64,000 nucleotides of DNA from Desulfobacterales bacterium (GTDB taxonomy: Bacteria; Desulfobacterota; UBA8473), in assembly GCA_016209225.1 (NCBI GenBank), contig JACQWO010000003.1:13298-77297 (forward strand), given 5' to 3'. The position numbers and the translations under genes were made by a program. The notes beneath the pieces were generated by a model. It was given only the letters and a program-made list of their open reading frames with translations. It was not told the DNA's origin and ran no database searches. Numbering within the stretch: position 1 is the stretch's first letter; the number at the start of each line of letters is the position of its first letter. This document shows positions 10,467-53,072 of this stretch, in pieces.

Positions 10467-10489
10467 TTATTTCTCCCCCGTTCAAACCT

Positions 10490-10642
10490 GATGGACTCGT
10501 AAAAAGTCAAAATTGGGATGGCAAAGTAAAAAGCTCCAGATGCAAGGCGCGCAAATCCTGAGGAGTGAAGCGTACTTATAGTTACGCTGCAACGACGAAG
10601 GATGCAGTGCAACGCCGCAGATGGACTTTTCAAGAAGCCATC
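10490..10642 (+). repeat. MITE-like element, copy 1 (153 bp, terminal inverted repeats, 6 bp target-site duplication AAACCT)
   Basis: Identical AAACCT hexamers lie at 10484-10489 and 10643-10648. The terminal inverted repeat is GATGGACTCGTAAAAAGTC, matching the reverse complement of the other end. The two ORFs called inside it are artefacts. Confidence 0.8.
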
Positions 10643-11408
10643 AAACCTTCTTTTCTACAAACGCATAGGCATTATGATTGTGAATGCTCTCAAAGTTTTC
10701 TGCCTCCACACTAAACCAGGTAATATTTGTATCGGCATCGAGCTTAGAGGCTACATTCCTGACCACGTCTTCAACAAACATAGGATTTGAATATGCCTTT
10801 TCTGTAACGAATTTTTCATCGGACCTTTTAAGAAGGGAGTAGACTTCACTGCTCGCTGACTCCTCAACATATTTTATAATGTCTTCAATCCAGAGAAATT
10901 TTTCGAAACGCAGTTTAACTGATGCTTTACCCCTCTGATTATGGGCGCCATCCTGGCTAATTTCTTTAGAGCAGGGGCATAAGGTGGTGATGGGGACGTC
11001 TACCTGAATATATAAATCTCTCTCTTCATTGTGGGATGCACAAAATTTGCAGGTATATTCCATCAGGCCCTTTGCTTTCGAAACAGGAGCCCTTTTCTCT
11101 ATAAAATAGGGAAATTCTATCTCCAGGTGAGCGGATTTGGCATTGAGTTTTTCTTTCATCTCGTCAATTATGGTAAAGAGGGTCTTGATGTTTATTCTTC
11201 CCCTGTACTCATTCAGTATCTCAATAAATCTACTCATGTGGGTCCCCTTGAAATGGTGGGGAAGGTTGACATACATATTTATGTTGGCTATTGTATGTTG
11301 AGTCTTATTCTTCCGATCTAAAACGATGATCGGGTATTTGATATTTTTCACACCGACTTTCTCAATCTCTATATTCCGATGGTCAGCTTGGTTTTGAATA
11401 TCGATCAT
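10641..11408 (-). CDS. folE2: GTP cyclohydrolase I type 2 (FolE2/MptA family)
   Basis: 255 aa ORF with the DUF198/FolE2 signature ...CPCSKEISQDGAHNQR. The ribosome-binding site is GAAGAGGAG. Confidence 0.9.
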   Translation of the reverse strand: MIDIQNQADHRNIEIEKVGVKNIKYPIIVLDRKNKTQHTIANINMYVNLPHHFKGTHMSRFIEILNEYRGRINIKTLFTIIDEMKEKLNAKSAHLEIEFPYFIEKRAPVSKAKGLMEYTCKFCASHNEERDLYIQVDVPITTLCPCSKEISQDGAHNQRGKASVKLRFEKFLWIEDIIKYVEESASSEVYSLLKRSDEKFVTEKAYSNPMFVEDVVRNVASKLDADTNITWFSVEAENFESIHNHNAYAFVEKKV

Positions 11409-11431
11409 CTCCTCTTCCCCGCTCTACTCTT

Positions 11432-11584
11432 GATGGACTCGTAAAAATTCAAAATTGGGATGGCAAAGTAAAAAGCTCCAGATGCAAGGCGCACAAATCC
11501 TGAGGAGTGAAGCGTACTTATAGTTACGCTGCAACGACGAAGGATGCAGTGCAACGCCGCAGATGGACTTTTTAAGAAGCCATC
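11432..11584 (+). repeat. MITE-like element, copy 2 (target-site duplication ACTCTT/ACTCTC)
   Basis: About 96% identical to copy 1. It was inserted between the queD stop and the folE2 ribosome-binding site, and its last two bases plus the first base of the duplication form the queD TGA stop. Confidence 0.8.
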
Positions 11585-11957
11585 ACTCTCCTTCATAATA
11601 AGAGGCACAGGAACCCTCAGATTCCCAGACAGCTACCCTGCTTATTACAACATTACCATCGTTGATCTCTTTTTCTAAGTTCTTGAAGATATAAGCCGCA
11701 ATATTCTCAGAAGATGGGTTTAACTCAGCAAAGTAAGGAAGTTCATTTAGATACGTGTGATCTAATCGGTTTAAAATGATCTGGGTTTTTTCCTTCAAGA
11801 TTCTGAAATCTATTGCCATACCAGTGCCATCCAGTTTTTTTGCCCTTGTATGGACGTCTACTCTAAAGTTATGCCCATGGAGACCTTCACATTTGCCTCC
11901 GTACTCCCTAAGGCTATGGGCAGCAGAAAACCCTGATTTAATCATTACCTCATACAT
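11583..11957 (-). CDS. queD: 6-carboxy-tetrahydropterin / 6-pyruvoyl-tetrahydropterin synthase family
   Basis: 124 aa ORF with a CEGLHGH motif, matching the Cx3HGH zinc site of the PTPS/QueD family. Confidence 0.8.
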   Translation of the reverse strand: MYEVMIKSGFSAAHSLREYGGKCEGLHGHNFRVDVHTRAKKLDGTGMAIDFRILKEKTQIILNRLDHTYLNELPYFAELNPSSENIAAYIFKNLEKEINDGNVVISRVAVWESEGSCASYYEGE

Positions 11958-25537: not shown

Positions 25538-25585
25538 AAAAAGGACTTTGGAAAGGTATCCCTTCAAAGTCCTCAATCTAAAGAA

Positions 25586-25741
25586 GATGAAGTCGTAAAA
25601 AGTCAAAAATCAGATGGCACAGTAAAAAGCTCTAGATGCAGCAAGGCGCGCAAATCCAAAGGAATGAGGCGTACTTACCTGCACGCTGCAATGACTGAGG
25701 ATGCAGCGGAACGCCGCAGATGGACTTTTTACAAAGCCGTC
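25586..25741 (+). repeat. MITE-like element, copy 3 (diverged, about 85% identity; target-site duplication AAAGAA)
   Basis: AAAGAA hexamers lie at 25580-25585 and 25742-25747. The element sits between hdrB and hdrA, 17 nt upstream of the hdrA GTG start. Confidence 0.7.
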
Positions 25742-25758
25742 AAAGAAGGGGTGTCACT

Positions 25759-27729
25759 GTGTCAAAAATTGGAGTATTTATCTGTCACTGCGGTGTCAAT
25801 ATCTCAAGCACGGTAGATGTAGAAAAGATTACTGAAGAGTTGGCCAAAGAAGATGGGGTGGCCTTCGCAACAGAATATAAGTACATGTGTTCTGACCCAG
25901 GGCAGAAGATCATCAAGGACGCCATTAAAGAGCACAACCTTGACGGAATAGTGGTAGCCTCCTGCTCTCCCAGATTACATGAGAGAACATTCCAGTTGTG
26001 TATAGAGGCAGGCGGTCTGAACAGATACAAACTCGAGATGGCCAATATTCGAGAGCAGTGTTCCTGGGTACATAAAGACAAAGAATTCGCAACAGAAAAG
26101 GCTAAAGACCTGATCAAGATGGCTGTAGCCAAAGTTCGAAAGAACCAGCCTCTTACCCGGTTTTCCATCCCGGTTTTTAAAAAGGCACTGGTAATCGGTG
26201 GAGGTATTGCCGGGATGCAGGCATCCATAGACATCGCCAAGGCTGGATACAAAGTCACCTTAGTGGAAAGGACTCCGACTATTGGCGGGAGAATGGCGCA
26301 ACTGGACAAGACATTTCCTACCTTAGACTGCTCTGCCTGAATACTTACACCCAGGATGGTGGAGTCATCCCAAAACGAAAATATAGAGATACTTACTTAT
26401 TCAGAGGTTGAAGAAGTCAGTGGATATATAGGCAACTTTGATGTAAGGATTCGCAAAAAGGCCCGTCTCGTTGACATGAAGAAGTGCACAGGATGTGGAA
26501 CCTGTTATCAGAAATGCCCTGTAAAGGTTCCCAGTGAATTCGATATGGAGACAGGCATGAGAAAGGCCATATATATCCCCTTTCCTCAGGCTGTTCCGAA
26601 TGTGCCTGTGATCGATAAGGTAAACTGCAGGATGTTTACCAAGGGAAAATGCCAGATTTGTCAGAAGCTCTGTCAGGCAGAGGCAGTAGATTACGAACAG
26701 GAAGACGAGGTCATTGAAGATAAATTTGGTGCCATTGTAGTGGCAACGGGGTACGACCTTTTCGATGCCAGTGTCTACGGTGAGTATGGTGGTGGAAGGT
26801 TTAAGGATGTTATTAGCGGACTCCAACTGGAGAGGCTGATAAGCCCGGCCGGCCCCACAGGGGGTCATATAGTTAGGCCTTCAGATGGCAAGGAACCGAA
26901 GAATGTTGTCTTTATCCAGTGTGTTGGATCTAGGGATCCTGAAAAAGGATTTCCTTATTGTTCCAGCGTGTGTTGCATGTACACAGCGAAACATGCGGTA
27001 TTGCTTAAGGAACATATACCCGATGTTCAGACGAACATCTTCTATATGGATATCAGATCAGCGGGGAAGAACTATGAGCAGTTTGTGCAGCGAACAATGG
27101 AACAATACGGTGCGTTGTATATCAGAGGAAGGGTCTCAAAGATTTATCAGCGAGGGGATAAATTAATAGTTAAAGGGGCAGATACCCTGGCAGGCAGCCA
27201 GGTAGAGGTAGAGGCGGATTTAGTTGTGCTGGCTACGGCGATAACTGCGCGCCACGATTCAAAGGAATTAGCCAAAATCCTGGGTATCCCTTATGATCAG
27301 TTTGGATTCTTCACGGAGTTGCACCCAAAACTGGCTCCGGTTGAAACGGTCACATCCGGTGTCTTTCTGGCAGGTGCCTGTCAGTCTCCTAAAGATATTC
27401 CAGATACTGTCGCTGCTGCCAGCGGCGCTGCAGTGAAGGTTGCAGCCCTTTTCAGCGGTGACTTTCTGTCGATGGAGCCACTAGTCTCAACTATAGATAC
27501 CTCTGTCTGTTCTATGTGCAAGGCATGTATTGAGGTATGTCCTTACAAAGCTATCCAGGAAGAAGAGATTACCCTACGGGATGGAACCAAGAAAAAGCAG
27601 CTCAAGGTACTGGAAAGCGTATGTCATGGGTGTGGGGCATGTGTTTCCACCTGCAGATCTTCCTGTATTATGCTGAAAGGGATGACCGACGAACAGATCT
27701 TTGAGGAGTTGATGGCAGTAGCTCAGTAA
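25759..27729 (+). CDS. hdrA: heterodisulfide reductase subunit A, selenocysteine-containing (Sec encoded by TGA 26338-26340)
   Basis: ORFs 25720-26340 and 26356-27729 share a frame and are separated only by TGA. The TGA falls where Cys-containing HdrA has the second Cys of FPTLDCS-x-C-ILTPKMVE. The true start is probably GTG 25759 (MSKIGVFICHCG), with AAGGGG as ribosome-binding site. The FAD site reads GGGIAGM and several 4Fe-4S motifs are present. Confidence 0.8.
26354..26370 (+). other. candidate bacterial SECIS-like hairpin (GGATG-GUGGAGU-CATCC) 14 nt downstream of the hdrA UGA
   Basis: Five bp stem with a 7 nt loop containing GG and U, at about the spacing seen for bacterial SECIS elements. 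The stem is short. Confidence 0.35.
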
Positions 27730-46502: not shown

Positions 46503-47114
46503 ATGAACAAAAAGGGATTGTTATTTATAATATCAGCTCCATCTGGTGCTGGCAAAACATCCTTGTGTAAAGAGGTTGTAAAATTCTTTCCTAACTTATA
46601 TCACTCAGTGTCTTGTACTACAAGGCTTCCTCGGCCAGGAGAGAAAGATGGTGAAGATTATCTTTTTGTCTCTAACGATAAGTTCCAGAAGATGATAGAT
46701 GATAGGAGATTTGTCGAATGGGCTGAGATTCATGGTAATAGATATGGAACAACCATAGATTCGTTAAAAGAGTACCGGCATAAGGGAATTGACATAATTC
46801 TCGACATAGATGGACAGGGGGGCAGACAACTTAAGAATGAGTATCCAGATGGCATCTATATATTTATTCTTCCCCCTTCATGGAAGGATTTGGAAGAGAG
46901 GTTAAGATTAAGGAGTACAGATAGTGATGAGGATATTGAAAAGCGGTTAAAAAATGCAAAAGAAGAACTTCAGTACATTTATAACTATGATTACATAGTG
47001 GTGAATAATGATTTAGAAGAGGCAGTATCCGCACTGAAATCAATAATAATTGCGGAGAAGTGTCGAAAAGATAGGGTTTTACCGTTGGTTAAGGGTCTCT
47101 TTCAACTGCCCTAA
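46503..47114 (+). CDS. gmk: guanylate kinase
   Basis: The P-loop reads SAPSGAGKTS, and the sequence shows the guanylate kinase fold. Confidence 0.95.
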   Translation: MNKKGLLFIISAPSGAGKTSLCKEVVKFFPNLYHSVSCTTRLPRPGEKDGEDYLFVSNDKFQKMIDDRRFVEWAEIHGNRYGTTIDSLKEYRHKGIDIILDIDGQGGRQLKNEYPDGIYIFILPPSWKDLEERLRLRSTDSDEDIEKRLKNAKEELQYIYNYDYIVVNNDLEEAVSALKSIIIAEKCRKDRVLPLVKGLFQLP

Positions 47115-47119
47115 AGTTT

Positions 47120-47272
47120 GATGGACTCGTAAAAAGTCAAAATTGGGATGGCAAAGTAAAAAGCTCCAGATGCAAGGCGCGCAAATCCTGAGAAGTGAAG
47201 CGTACTTAGGGGTACGCTGCAACGACTAAAGATGCAGTGCAACGCCGCAGATGGACTTTTTACGAAGCCATC
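47120..47272 (+). repeat. MITE-like element, copy 4 (target-site duplication AAGTTT)
   Basis: AAGTTT lies at 47114-47119, overlapping the last base of the gmk stop, and again at 47273-47278. The copy is about 97% identical to copy 1. Confidence 0.8.
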
Positions 47273-47314
47273 AAGTTTTAATAATATGCTTTATTAATAG
47301 AGAGGGCAAATTTA

Positions 47315-48073: not shown

Positions 48074-48583
48074 TCATTTTTTCTCCACTCCAAAATGCCT
48101 TTCCCATTCATCCAAAAGCTGATGCTCTTTTGGACATTCCAGATAGTTTTCTATTCTTCCTATATTAAAATCCCCCAAGGTTTCCACTCCAAAATTTCTA
48201 CTCCAGAGCTTTTTAATTTTGTGTTGTTTTTGAATATCTTTATATCTGCCCATGATCAAGAACGATGTCCTCTCCCTTATATCCTTAACTACATTAGGTA
48301 TGAAATGTGTGGGCTTGGTGCCCAGAATCAGATGGGTATGATTTGGGTGAATAACCAAACCGAAAAGCTCATATCCCTTTGTGGTGGTAACCTCTTTAAA
48401 GATTGCCTCCAATTCTCTTGATATTTCATGGGTAATTATTGGCAGATATCTGGGGGTAAAAAGGATTAGGTGGTAATAGATTCTGTAAACGACGTTTAAA
48501 GATTTCTCCCAATGAATCTCTCTTACGGGCTGGAAATAGGACGACAGGATAGTGTTTATCATAATCTCCTCGCAAAAGATCAA
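48074..48583 (-). mobile_element. tnpA: IS200/IS605-family element: Y1 HuH transposase TnpA
   Basis: HuH reads HPNHTHLIL, the N-terminal beta-strand YHLILFTPRY is present, and the C-terminus reads LWSRNFGVETLG...ENYLE. The gene sits 18 nt after the pyrF stop. Confidence 0.75.
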
Positions 48584-52479: not shown

Positions 52480-52920
52480 ATGGAGTTTGCCGTGTTAAAG
52501 TTACTTATGCCTTATCACCTCAAGCTAAAGGTAGAACGTTCTTATCAATGGCTTCAAGACAGACTCGTAAGAACCTGTGTACGGGAAGATGTCAAAGATA
52601 TTAGACACGCCCAAACAATTCTTCATCGCAAACTTCAACGATACAACTACAGGCAAGTTCACTCAACCACCCAGGAGGTTCCTTACTATCGGTTTCAAAG
52701 GGCCCTTAACGAAGGCAAATCCCTGTTCCGAGAATTTAAAGTACCTTATATATCTCTTAACGGGATACAACTAAAAGTCAAAAACGCTACCCCCAGAGAG
52801 ACGGTCTCCCTCCGGATTTATCCCCTTAATCAAACCGTCTCTGAGTTTAGACTCTGGCATCAAAATCCTGAAGAGCACTCAAGGGGTACGCGCTCGCACT
52901 GTATCCTGCCCCGTGCTTGA
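52480..52920 (+). pseudogene. C-terminal remnant of a DDE (rve-type) transposase (IS21/Mu-like C-terminal domain)
   Basis: ...LQRYNYRQVHSTTQEVP resembles the end of the integrase core, W.YN.ERPH..LG..TP. A Mu/IstA-like C-terminal domain follows. No catalytic DDE part lies upstream, and the gene is adjacent to the tRNA. Confidence 0.45.
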
Positions 52921-52939
52921 CACGGGGCAGGATACAGTG
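52897..52939. other. perfect 19 bp stem hairpin (CACTGTATCCTGCCCCGTG / CACGGGGCAGGATACAGTG, loop CTTGA)
   Basis: Read directly from the sequence. The 3' arm merges into the partial MITE. Confidence 0.6.
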
Positions 52940-52972
52940 CAACGCCGCAGATGGACTTTTTACGAAGCCATC
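52931..52972 (+). repeat. partial MITE copy (the 3' terminal 42 bp only)
   Basis: GATACAGTGCAACGCCGCAGATGGACTTTTTACGAAGCCATC matches the last 42 bp of the full copies with a single mismatch (GATACAG versus GATGCAG). Confidence 0.55.
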
Positions 52973-52995: not shown

Positions 52996-53072
52996 TGGTG
53001 GCGGTGCAGGGATTTGAACCCCGGACACTGCGGATATGAGCCGCATGCTCTAACCAACTGAGCTACACCGCC
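52996..53072 (-). tRNA. tRNA-Met (anticodon CAT), with CCA encoded
   Basis: A cloverleaf reads directly from the sequence. The acceptor stem is GGCGGTG/CACCGCC, the D-arm GCTC-AGTTGGTTA-GAGC, and the anticodon loop CUCAUAU. I cannot tell elongator Met from Ile2 (lysidine) by eye. Confidence 0.8.

Follow-up and report, generated by a model that had tools for sequence, protein, structure and literature searches.

Bacterial MITEs (miniature transposable elements with inverted repeats) that fold into hairpins, among them Correia/NEMIS in Neisseria, ERIC/IRU in Enterobacteria, RUP in Streptococcus pneumoniae and Nezha in cyanobacteria, have terminal inverted repeats (TIRs) and short flanking duplications, form a stable hairpin, are non-coding and possess no transposase of their own. 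They are found in many intergenic copies, often within operons, and several of these families duplicate TA. In a review table of bacterial MITEs, their sizes are about 100-200 bp. Here we describe an element of 153 bp, similar to these families in size, ends, lack of coding capacity, fold and placement, that is repeated in a 64,000-nt stretch of DNA from a Desulfobacterales bacterium (contig JACQWO010000003.1, positions 13,298 to 77,297; this whole stretch is referred to here as the window). The copies very probably represent a non-autonomous DNA transposon, i.e., a MITE, with 6-bp target-site duplications. The element differs from the hairpin MITEs named above in that its duplication is 6 bp long at AANNTT, its left end bears a third copy of the TIR in direct orientation, and its hairpin arms are common to several phyla rather than to one genus or family.

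Two further groups of described elements invite comparison. REP/REPIN sequences, which are associated with RAYT transposases, are likewise abundant extragenic imperfect hairpins with conserved mismatches, and the window contains a Y1 transposase gene. REPINs, however, have no TIRs in the transposon sense and no target duplications, whereas the window elements have clear duplications. Chunjie, a deltaproteobacterial MITE from Geobacter uraniireducens Rf4, also sits in operons without disrupting them and has a stable fold, but by its published description it is 178-235 bp long with 21-bp TIRs and 9-bp direct repeats, compared to 153 bp and 6-bp duplications here. Identity with Chunjie was rejected on these published features (size, TIR length and duplication length) alone. 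Nothing corresponding to the window element came up in a review and a review table of named bacterial MITEs, which were used for Chunjie and for element sizes. The less routine features of the window element are the asymmetric three-repeat ends, the 6-bp palindromic target and a deeply conserved, covarying hairpin core shared with differently ended elements.

A profile built from the four full copies proposed in a first-pass annotation was searched over the window with nhmmer, and returned exactly the proposed intervals, all on the plus strand: copy 1 at 10490-10642 (153 bp, E = 6e-54), copy 2 at 11432-11584 (153 bp, E = 1.6e-53), copy 3 at 25586-25741 (156 bp, E = 1.2e-47) and copy 4 at 47120-47272 (153 bp, E = 3e-53). 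Copies 2 and 4 are 98.0 and 94.8% identical to copy 1; copy 3, at 83.9%, belongs to a second, divergent subfamily with the tips GATGAAG...GCCGTC. When the copies were aligned with 20 bp of flank, similarity ended sharply at these boundaries, and the 6-bp direct duplications described earlier could be read directly from the sequence at each copy: AAACCT at 10484-10489 and 10643-10648, ACTCTT at 11426-11431 with ACTCTC at 11585-11590 (5/6 identical), AAAGAA at 25580-25585 and 25742-25747, and AAGTTT at 47114-47119 and 47273-47278. Copy 1 lies between the start of an apgM-like gene and the stop of folE2, copy 2 between the folE2 start and the queD stop, copy 3 just upstream of the hdrA ribosome-binding site, and copy 4 between gmk and pyrF, where the first base of its left duplication is the last base of the gmk TAA stop. 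The G+C content of the window is 41.5%.

In addition to the full copies, a 5'-truncated copy comprising the right arm and right TIR, followed by AAAGTT, was recovered on the plus strand at 52922-52972 (profile positions 103-153, E = 1.7e-11). This fragment had been annotated as 42 bp at 52931-52972; it is present and longer, measuring at least 44 (BLAST) to 51 nt (nhmmer). A covariance model of the hairpin core (described below) did not recover it as a full core, and similarity judged by eye may reach back to about position 52858, in which case the copy would be a variant into which a small palindrome was inserted. The four copies and the fragment share one strand over 43 kb, an arrangement with a chance of roughly 1 in 16. 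Neighbouring copies in the loci fetched from other genomes are mixed in orientation (7 pairs the same, 6 opposite), and therefore no replication-related bias can be claimed.

To follow the element beyond the window, the exact 20-mer of its right arm, AACGCCGCAGATGGACTTTT, was scanned in a species-representative genome collection; at least 115 stretches contain it, with sources in Desulfobacterota, Nitrospirota, Peptococcaceae, Selenomonadales, Chitinivibrionales, Baltobacteraceae and others. The profile search of these 115 loci gave 139 hits, 50 of them full length. Among 54 full copies from other genomes, the two flanking hexamers match at all six positions in 26 and at five of six in 9, compared to a maximum of 4/6 for control hexamers shifted outward by 6 bp around the same copies. 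This control, together with the relatives described below, contradicts the possibility that the hexamers belong to a longer conserved sequence. The termini GAYGG...CCRTC are conserved in the 54 copies, and the element ends read GAYGGNNTCGTAAAAAGTC. A target logo of the 39 best sites shows A (36/39), A (27/39), two positions of any base, T (27/39) and T (33/39), preceded by C or T and followed mostly by G or A. The resulting consensus, Y/AANNTT/R, is palindromic, which fits a staggered cut by a symmetric enzyme.

With respect to flanking genes, 20 copies are co-directional and 16 antisense, while 11 lie between divergent and 11 between convergent genes; this absence of orientation bias fits a DNA-level element. 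A search of viral contigs gave 0 matches, and plasmids yielded no match for either the type with 6-bp duplications or the CTAG-flanked type described below. Several copies abut contig ends, which suggests that the element breaks assemblies.

Relatives of the window with orthologous sites established the mobility of the element. In the metagenome-assembled genome (MAG) SURF_34 (L045; loci outside the window are given as L numbers), which at 90-95% nucleotide identity is the closest relative among the matches listed, the ortholog of copy 2 is present with the same duplication. The copy-1 site of this genome retains a 23-bp remnant, GATGGACTTTTTACGAAGCCGTC, between AAAGCT and AAACCT, which is explained by a deletion between two direct 8-mers, both GATGGACT, that lie at positions 1-8 and 131-138 of the element. 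Two metagenome contigs (L122/L123, 91-94% nucleotide identity across aligned blocks) have a different, 26-bp remnant, GATGGACTCGTAAAAACTAAGCCATC, at the copy-1 site, which in L122 is still flanked by AAAGCT/AAACCT as is the remnant in L045. Their copy-2 site is empty, with the hexamer occurring once, as ACTCTA (...CCCCTACTCTAACTCATAATAAGAGG...). In L124, with 81% nucleotide identity over folE2, the profile gave no hit, and neither end of folE2 shows sequence resembling the element. The copy-1 insertion is thus older than the separation of the three lineages and is now decaying, and the copy-2 insertion is younger than copy 1. The initial description of a non-coding, MITE-like element that transposes is thus borne out by the duplications in the 54 copies, by more than 115 further loci, and by the site in L122/L123 that lacks copy 2. 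Insertions and decay products that differ between relatives of about 93% identity could serve as markers of recent genome change.

The same sites bear on the gene that lies between copies 1 and 2. As proposed earlier, these two copies share one orientation and bracket folE2 (10641-11408, minus strand; Pfam GCHY-1, 1.4e-101) at the stop codons of folE2 and queD, the latter a gene of the 6-pyruvoyl-tetrahydropterin synthase family (11583-11957, minus strand; Pfam PTPS, 9.5e-40) whose stop codon spans the copy 2 end. Two direct, 98% identical copies around a single gene could represent a composite transposon that arrived, or moves, as a unit with folE2. However, the outer hexamers of such a unit differ (AAACCT and ACTCTC), each copy instead matching its own duplication, and folE2 stands beside queD in relatives without the elements. 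Furthermore, the copy-1 insertion is common to all three relatives, as the remnants in L045 and L122/L123 show, whereas the copy-2 site is empty in L122/L123; because the two sites differ in this way among relatives, the insertions occurred at different times. We therefore regard a composite origin as exceedingly improbable. The related suggestion that folE2 could be deleted by recombination between the 98% identical direct repeats stands as possible in principle, and folE2 is retained in all three relatives examined.

It had also been proposed that each insertion reconstitutes a TGA stop, the element end and the first duplicated base together supplying the codon. Read along the gene strand, the junction is GTT T/GA TGG for folE2 and GAG T/GA TGG for queD (the slash marks the element end), and base 10643, in the right duplication of copy 1, completes the folE2 TGA on the minus strand. 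The TGA codons do span both element and duplication, but this is trivial, as removal of the element and one duplication leaves GTT TGA ACG (folE2) and GAG TAG AGC (queD), with stops already at the same place before insertion. In the L122 empty site, queD ends with TAG. The proteins are therefore unchanged by the insertions, and only the queD stop is altered, from TAG to TGA. Placement at stop codons, and just ahead of the hdrA ribosome-binding site in the case of copy 3, is explained by a YAANNTTR target in which TAA is often found, combined with selection that removes disruptive insertions.

The open reading frames (ORFs) over the element gave no Pfam or NCBIfam family hits. The ORFs of 66-67 amino acids called in the window continue past the element into unique sequence, and no counterpart of 60 amino acids or more exists in copy 3 or copy 4, in agreement with the earlier view that no copy encodes a protein and that these ORFs are artefacts. 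A translated-element search nevertheless returned 106 clusters of "hypothetical proteins" of 41-83 amino acids, variable in length and without domains, at least 19 of them from one MAG. The element is thus widely mis-annotated, in uncultured anaerobes as dozens of short hypothetical proteins per genome. The claim that the family is new holds in so far as it is undescribed in Rfam, where the best sub-threshold hit to the element scored 16 bits against an 80-bit threshold and only a tRNA in the window passed the gathering threshold, and in a literature search by sequence strings, which found nothing relevant to the element; it does not hold for public MAGs, where the sequence is abundant under the hypothetical proteins. 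It is a genuine member of a well-known kind of element and has apparently remained undescribed. Giving the family a named model would tidy its annotation and account for some of the contig breaks.

The element is built from an outer left TIR of 19 bp, a spacer and an imperfect hairpin of about 125 nt. In copy 1 (all plus strand), the outer left TIR, GATGGACTCGTAAAAAGTC, occupies 10490-10508, abutting the duplication, and in the predicted fold lies outside the main hairpin with only a small 4-bp local stem. An inner, direct second copy of the TIR, GATGGCAAAGTAAAAAGCT (10517-10535, element positions 28-46), is predicted to form the base of the hairpin with the right TIR, GACTTTTCAAGAAGCCATC (10624-10642), so that the first 27 nt remain outside; the predicted pairing joins element positions 28-33 and 40-49 to 133-153. 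The conserved hairpin core extends over 10529-10630 and scored 112 bits with the covariance model. Its invariant arms are AAAAGCTCCAGATGCAAGGCG and AACGCCGCAGATGGACTTTT; the stems in its middle covary, and its apex is GCGTAC..GTACGC. The first-pass annotation gave the TIRs two mismatches over 19 bp, which applies to copy 4 and the consensus; copies 1 and 2 have four each.

The annotation also predicted a long stem from the inverted repeats. Folding of copy 1 as RNA gave a stable hairpin of -50.3 kcal/mol (z = -4.1), with similar values for the reverse strand (-48.2 kcal/mol, z = -4.1) and for copy 3 (-48.8 kcal/mol, z = -3.7); with DNA parameters the value was -23.5 kcal/mol (z = -2.6). The stem is thus present, but it is the inner TIR copy that pairs with the right end and not the first 19 nt. 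The spacer, 8 nt in the window, reaches up to about 66 nt in other subfamilies, and forms with the 66-nt spacer have perfect duplications (AAAGTT in L028 and ATTATT in L020). Forms reduced to the hairpin, without the outer TIR, likewise lie between perfect duplications in L025, in L043 and, as read from its flanks, in L018.

Several loci (L013, L062, L091, L072, L083, L029, L066, L092 and L068) have nested insertions on the 3' side of the hairpin. Some inserts are palindromes with CCCTGTTAAAT...ATTTAACAGGG at their borders, others are small hairpins rich in GC, for example GGGCACGCGCAGCGTGCCC, and one is a stretch of about 300 nt; mosaic elements with nested inserts of this kind are reminiscent of bacterial interspersed mosaic elements (BIMEs). 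At L028:7066-7105 and L111:6751-6801, covariance model matches of 40-51 nt keep both arms but lack the middle of the hairpin. These short versions may be mini-derivatives or may have arisen by deletion.

All subfamilies share the arms AAAAGCTCCAGATGCAAGGCG and AACGCCGCAGATGGACTTTT with almost no variation, while the region between them varies; the right arm was chosen by the search query, whereas the left arm was not selected. Single-sequence folds of 27 diverse members gave the same architecture. The core comprises an A/U stem, a bulged C, UCCA/UGGA, a 2x2 GA/GA internal loop, UGC/GCA, a bulged AA and GGC/GCC, followed distally by variable stems and an apical hairpin. The 2x2 GA/GA loop arises because CAGATG is present in direct orientation in both arms. 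A covariance model based on this structure identified 114 cores in 99 sources. In an alignment fitted to the structure model and made of copies related by descent, 92.9% of cells form standard pairs, compared to 35-46% with the partners slid by 1-3 columns. Compensatory changes were observed in 25 of 30 pairs (about 13.5 in shuffles), with 242 cells changed on both sides (about 60 in shuffles), and none of 500 shuffles reached any of the observed covariation values. Of the two strands, the top one has the more stable fold in 78 of 82 unique cores (by a mean of -6.1 kcal/mol), and the variable part contains 111 G.U pairs on the top strand and 51 on the bottom; these strand counts are suggestive, as the copies are non-independent by descent.

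The same core was found within elements that have different ends. In Peptococcaceae BRH_c4a, five of six copies align as CTAG followed by GAGAGTGTTGCAAAAC at the left and CAACAGCCTC followed by CTAG at the right, around the same core, and the copies also have the third TIR copy upstream. The sixth (L010) has a variant left end; at L010:4823-4990 the sequence TAGAGACAGTTGCA occurs at the left end and again right after the right end, a 14-bp direct repeat unlike the other five copies. Members from Nitrospirota and elsewhere have CAGGCTGCTGAAAAAG-type tips, with CTAG or CTAC flanks in several. In both the Peptococcaceae and the Nitrospirota-type groups, the tip lies 11 nt from an AAAAAG run.

Conservation of this core across different termini raises the possibility that the hairpin is a functional single-stranded module, either an RNA or a folded DNA strand to which a host or mobile-element protein binds, and that miniature transposons of two or more kinds carry it as cargo. 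Transposition would then serve merely as its vehicle, with selection acting to keep the core. Such a role overlaps with that of a non-autonomous transposon and does not exclude it. It would account for arms that are nearly invariant across phyla while tips and middle vary, for the strong stem covariation and common architecture of diverse members, for the conserved tandem G.A mismatch and bulges, for the greater stability and G.U content of the top strand, and for the presence of one core both within elements with GAYGG tips and 6-bp duplications and within elements with GGAGGCTG or CAGGCTG tips flanked by CTAG. Arguing against it, the copies have no orientation bias towards neighbouring genes, scans within and at the copies turned up neither a consistent promoter nor a consistent intrinsic terminator, and there is no Rfam family. 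The strand-bias counts come from copies related by descent and the covariance alignment was fitted to the structure, and since the AAAAAG run is 11 nt away from both tip types, it is simpler to suppose that the whole end has a common descent than that a cargo was captured. We therefore consider a cargo module unlikely. A little less likely again is its fuller form, in which a core of about 100 nt would be a single-stranded module under its own selection, spread in at least four phyla by miniature transposons with two end types. If true, the core would be a mobile structured RNA or DNA element and not a mere transposase-binding sequence. The deep conservation and the covariation of the core across different termini, the one feature that may go beyond the routine, make it testable whether MITE hairpins are maintained for their part in transposition or for a role as RNA.

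The differently ended relatives also resemble the insertion sequence (IS) IS5. E. coli IS5 was checked directly: its left end reads GGAAGGTGCGAACAAGTCCC, and its flanking 4-bp duplication is CTAA. This left end agrees at 15 of 20 positions with the Peptococcaceae tip, GGAGGCTGTTGAAAAAGTCC, which has CTAG flanks in place of CTAA. The window copies share only the inner AAAAAGTCC. They differ from IS5 in their GATGG... tips and in a 6-bp duplication at AANNTT, as opposed to 4 bp (YTAR) in IS5. No IS5-type transposase with these ends was found, and the resemblance is limited to about 20 bp. Judged from these end sequences, a relationship to the IS5 family is plausible for the Peptococcaceae and Nitrospirota-type relatives, and possible for the window subfamily, for which it is a lead rather than an assignment to the family.

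As a non-autonomous transposon, the element may be moved by a transposase supplied in trans that recognizes its ends and makes a cut staggered by 6 bp in the target, at the palindromic Y/AANNTT/R, and repair of this staggered cut would generate the 6-bp duplication. Copies would persist where they are harmless, that is, between operon genes, at or overlapping stop codons and just upstream of ribosome-binding sites, and would decay by internal deletion. The transposase is presumably of the DDE type, with a relation to IS5 possible. The hairpin may be conserved because the ends are recognized while folded as a single strand, or may have an RNA-level role.

Several observations weigh against a transposon of this kind. 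A search for an autonomous element that shares these ends was negative for the window, for the sequence next to solo ends and for the stretches between copy pairs. None of 85 cores has a left TIR with a matching duplication at a distance upstream of more than 200 nt, and no multi-copy proteins were found in the 115 loci. In published IS tables, no IS5 subgroup is known to be marked by duplications of 6 bp. Furthermore, the most conserved part of the element is the inner arm and not the tip, which is unusual for transposon ends, and the arms have fixed asymmetries (the direct CAGATG in both, the bulged C and the bulged AA). These asymmetries, together with the strand bias, hint at selection on a single-stranded form, which recognition of double-stranded DNA would leave unexplained. 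Finding the transposase partner would define an IS group.

The only complete transposase in the window is an IS200-like Y1 gene of 169 amino acids (48074-48583, minus strand; Pfam Y1_Tnp, 3e-21), located between pyrF and an AT-rich spacer. Its position about 800 bp from copy 4, together with the imperfect hairpins, their conserved mismatches and the bias towards top-strand folding, could indicate REP/REPIN-like hairpins moved by such an IS200-like, RAYT-type enzyme. However, Y1 (HUH) single-strand transposition as in IS200/IS605 does not produce duplications of the kind observed here, which are of fixed 6-bp length with a palindromic target consensus. In addition, neighbouring copies are mixed in orientation (7 same, 6 opposite), no inverted repeats were found around the Y1 gene, and the elements do not flank it. 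The Y1 transposase was ruled out as mobilizer by the duplications and the absence of flanking elements, and hairpins of this type moved by it are a very improbable explanation. The Y1 gene itself may be a solitary or RAYT-like copy.

A second candidate parent lies directly upstream of the fragment, where a C-terminal remnant of an ISNCY-type (rve) transposase (52480-52920, plus strand; NCBIfam transpos_ISNCY_2, 1e-5) is wedged between rplM and tRNA-Met (52996-53072, minus strand). The fragment abuts the 3' end of this remnant, and one ISNCY subgroup makes 6-7 bp duplications according to published IS tables, as would be expected if the elements were deletion derivatives of an ISNCY-type insertion sequence. 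However, complete relatives have TGT...ACA ends, unlike the MITE TIR, with repeated AATTAAAAGTG (AATTAAAAGTG(A/C)A) motifs, and gave no profile hit to the MITE; a tblastn search found a relative of the remnant transposase in 0 of the 115 loci. The remnant lacks the last ~28 residues of its homologues, and homology is lost exactly where the MITE-like sequence starts, at a shared CAAAAT/CAAAT, so that the switch looks like a junction and not a native end. As read from this sequence, the adjacency of remnant and fragment appears to be a junction rather than parentage. An ISNCY-type parent was rejected on the unrelated terminal sequences of full-length relatives, and derivation of the elements from one is highly unlikely. 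The ISNCY-type homologues form a large family of 1.4-1.5 kb elements, with genes that annotation often splits into two ORFs or lists as "hypothetical" fragments of 238-246 amino acids.

The genes neighbouring the full copies are ordinary housekeeping genes throughout: the apgM-like phosphoglycerate mutase gene, folE2 and queD on the minus strand, and an hdrB-like gene and hdrA, then gmk and pyrF, on the plus strand. In a metagenome contig (Ga0209521_10016580; L181:1500-1599), a core-type element with CAGGCTG-type tips was observed about 66 nt downstream of a distant folE2 ortholog (65% amino acid identity), an independent insertion in the same kind of place. In the window, hdrA (about 25759-27729, plus strand) is split by an in-frame TGA at 26338-26340, within the motif FPTLDCSA*ILTPRMVE. 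HdrA homologues presumably have Cys at this position, and the in-frame TGA is probably a selenocysteine codon.

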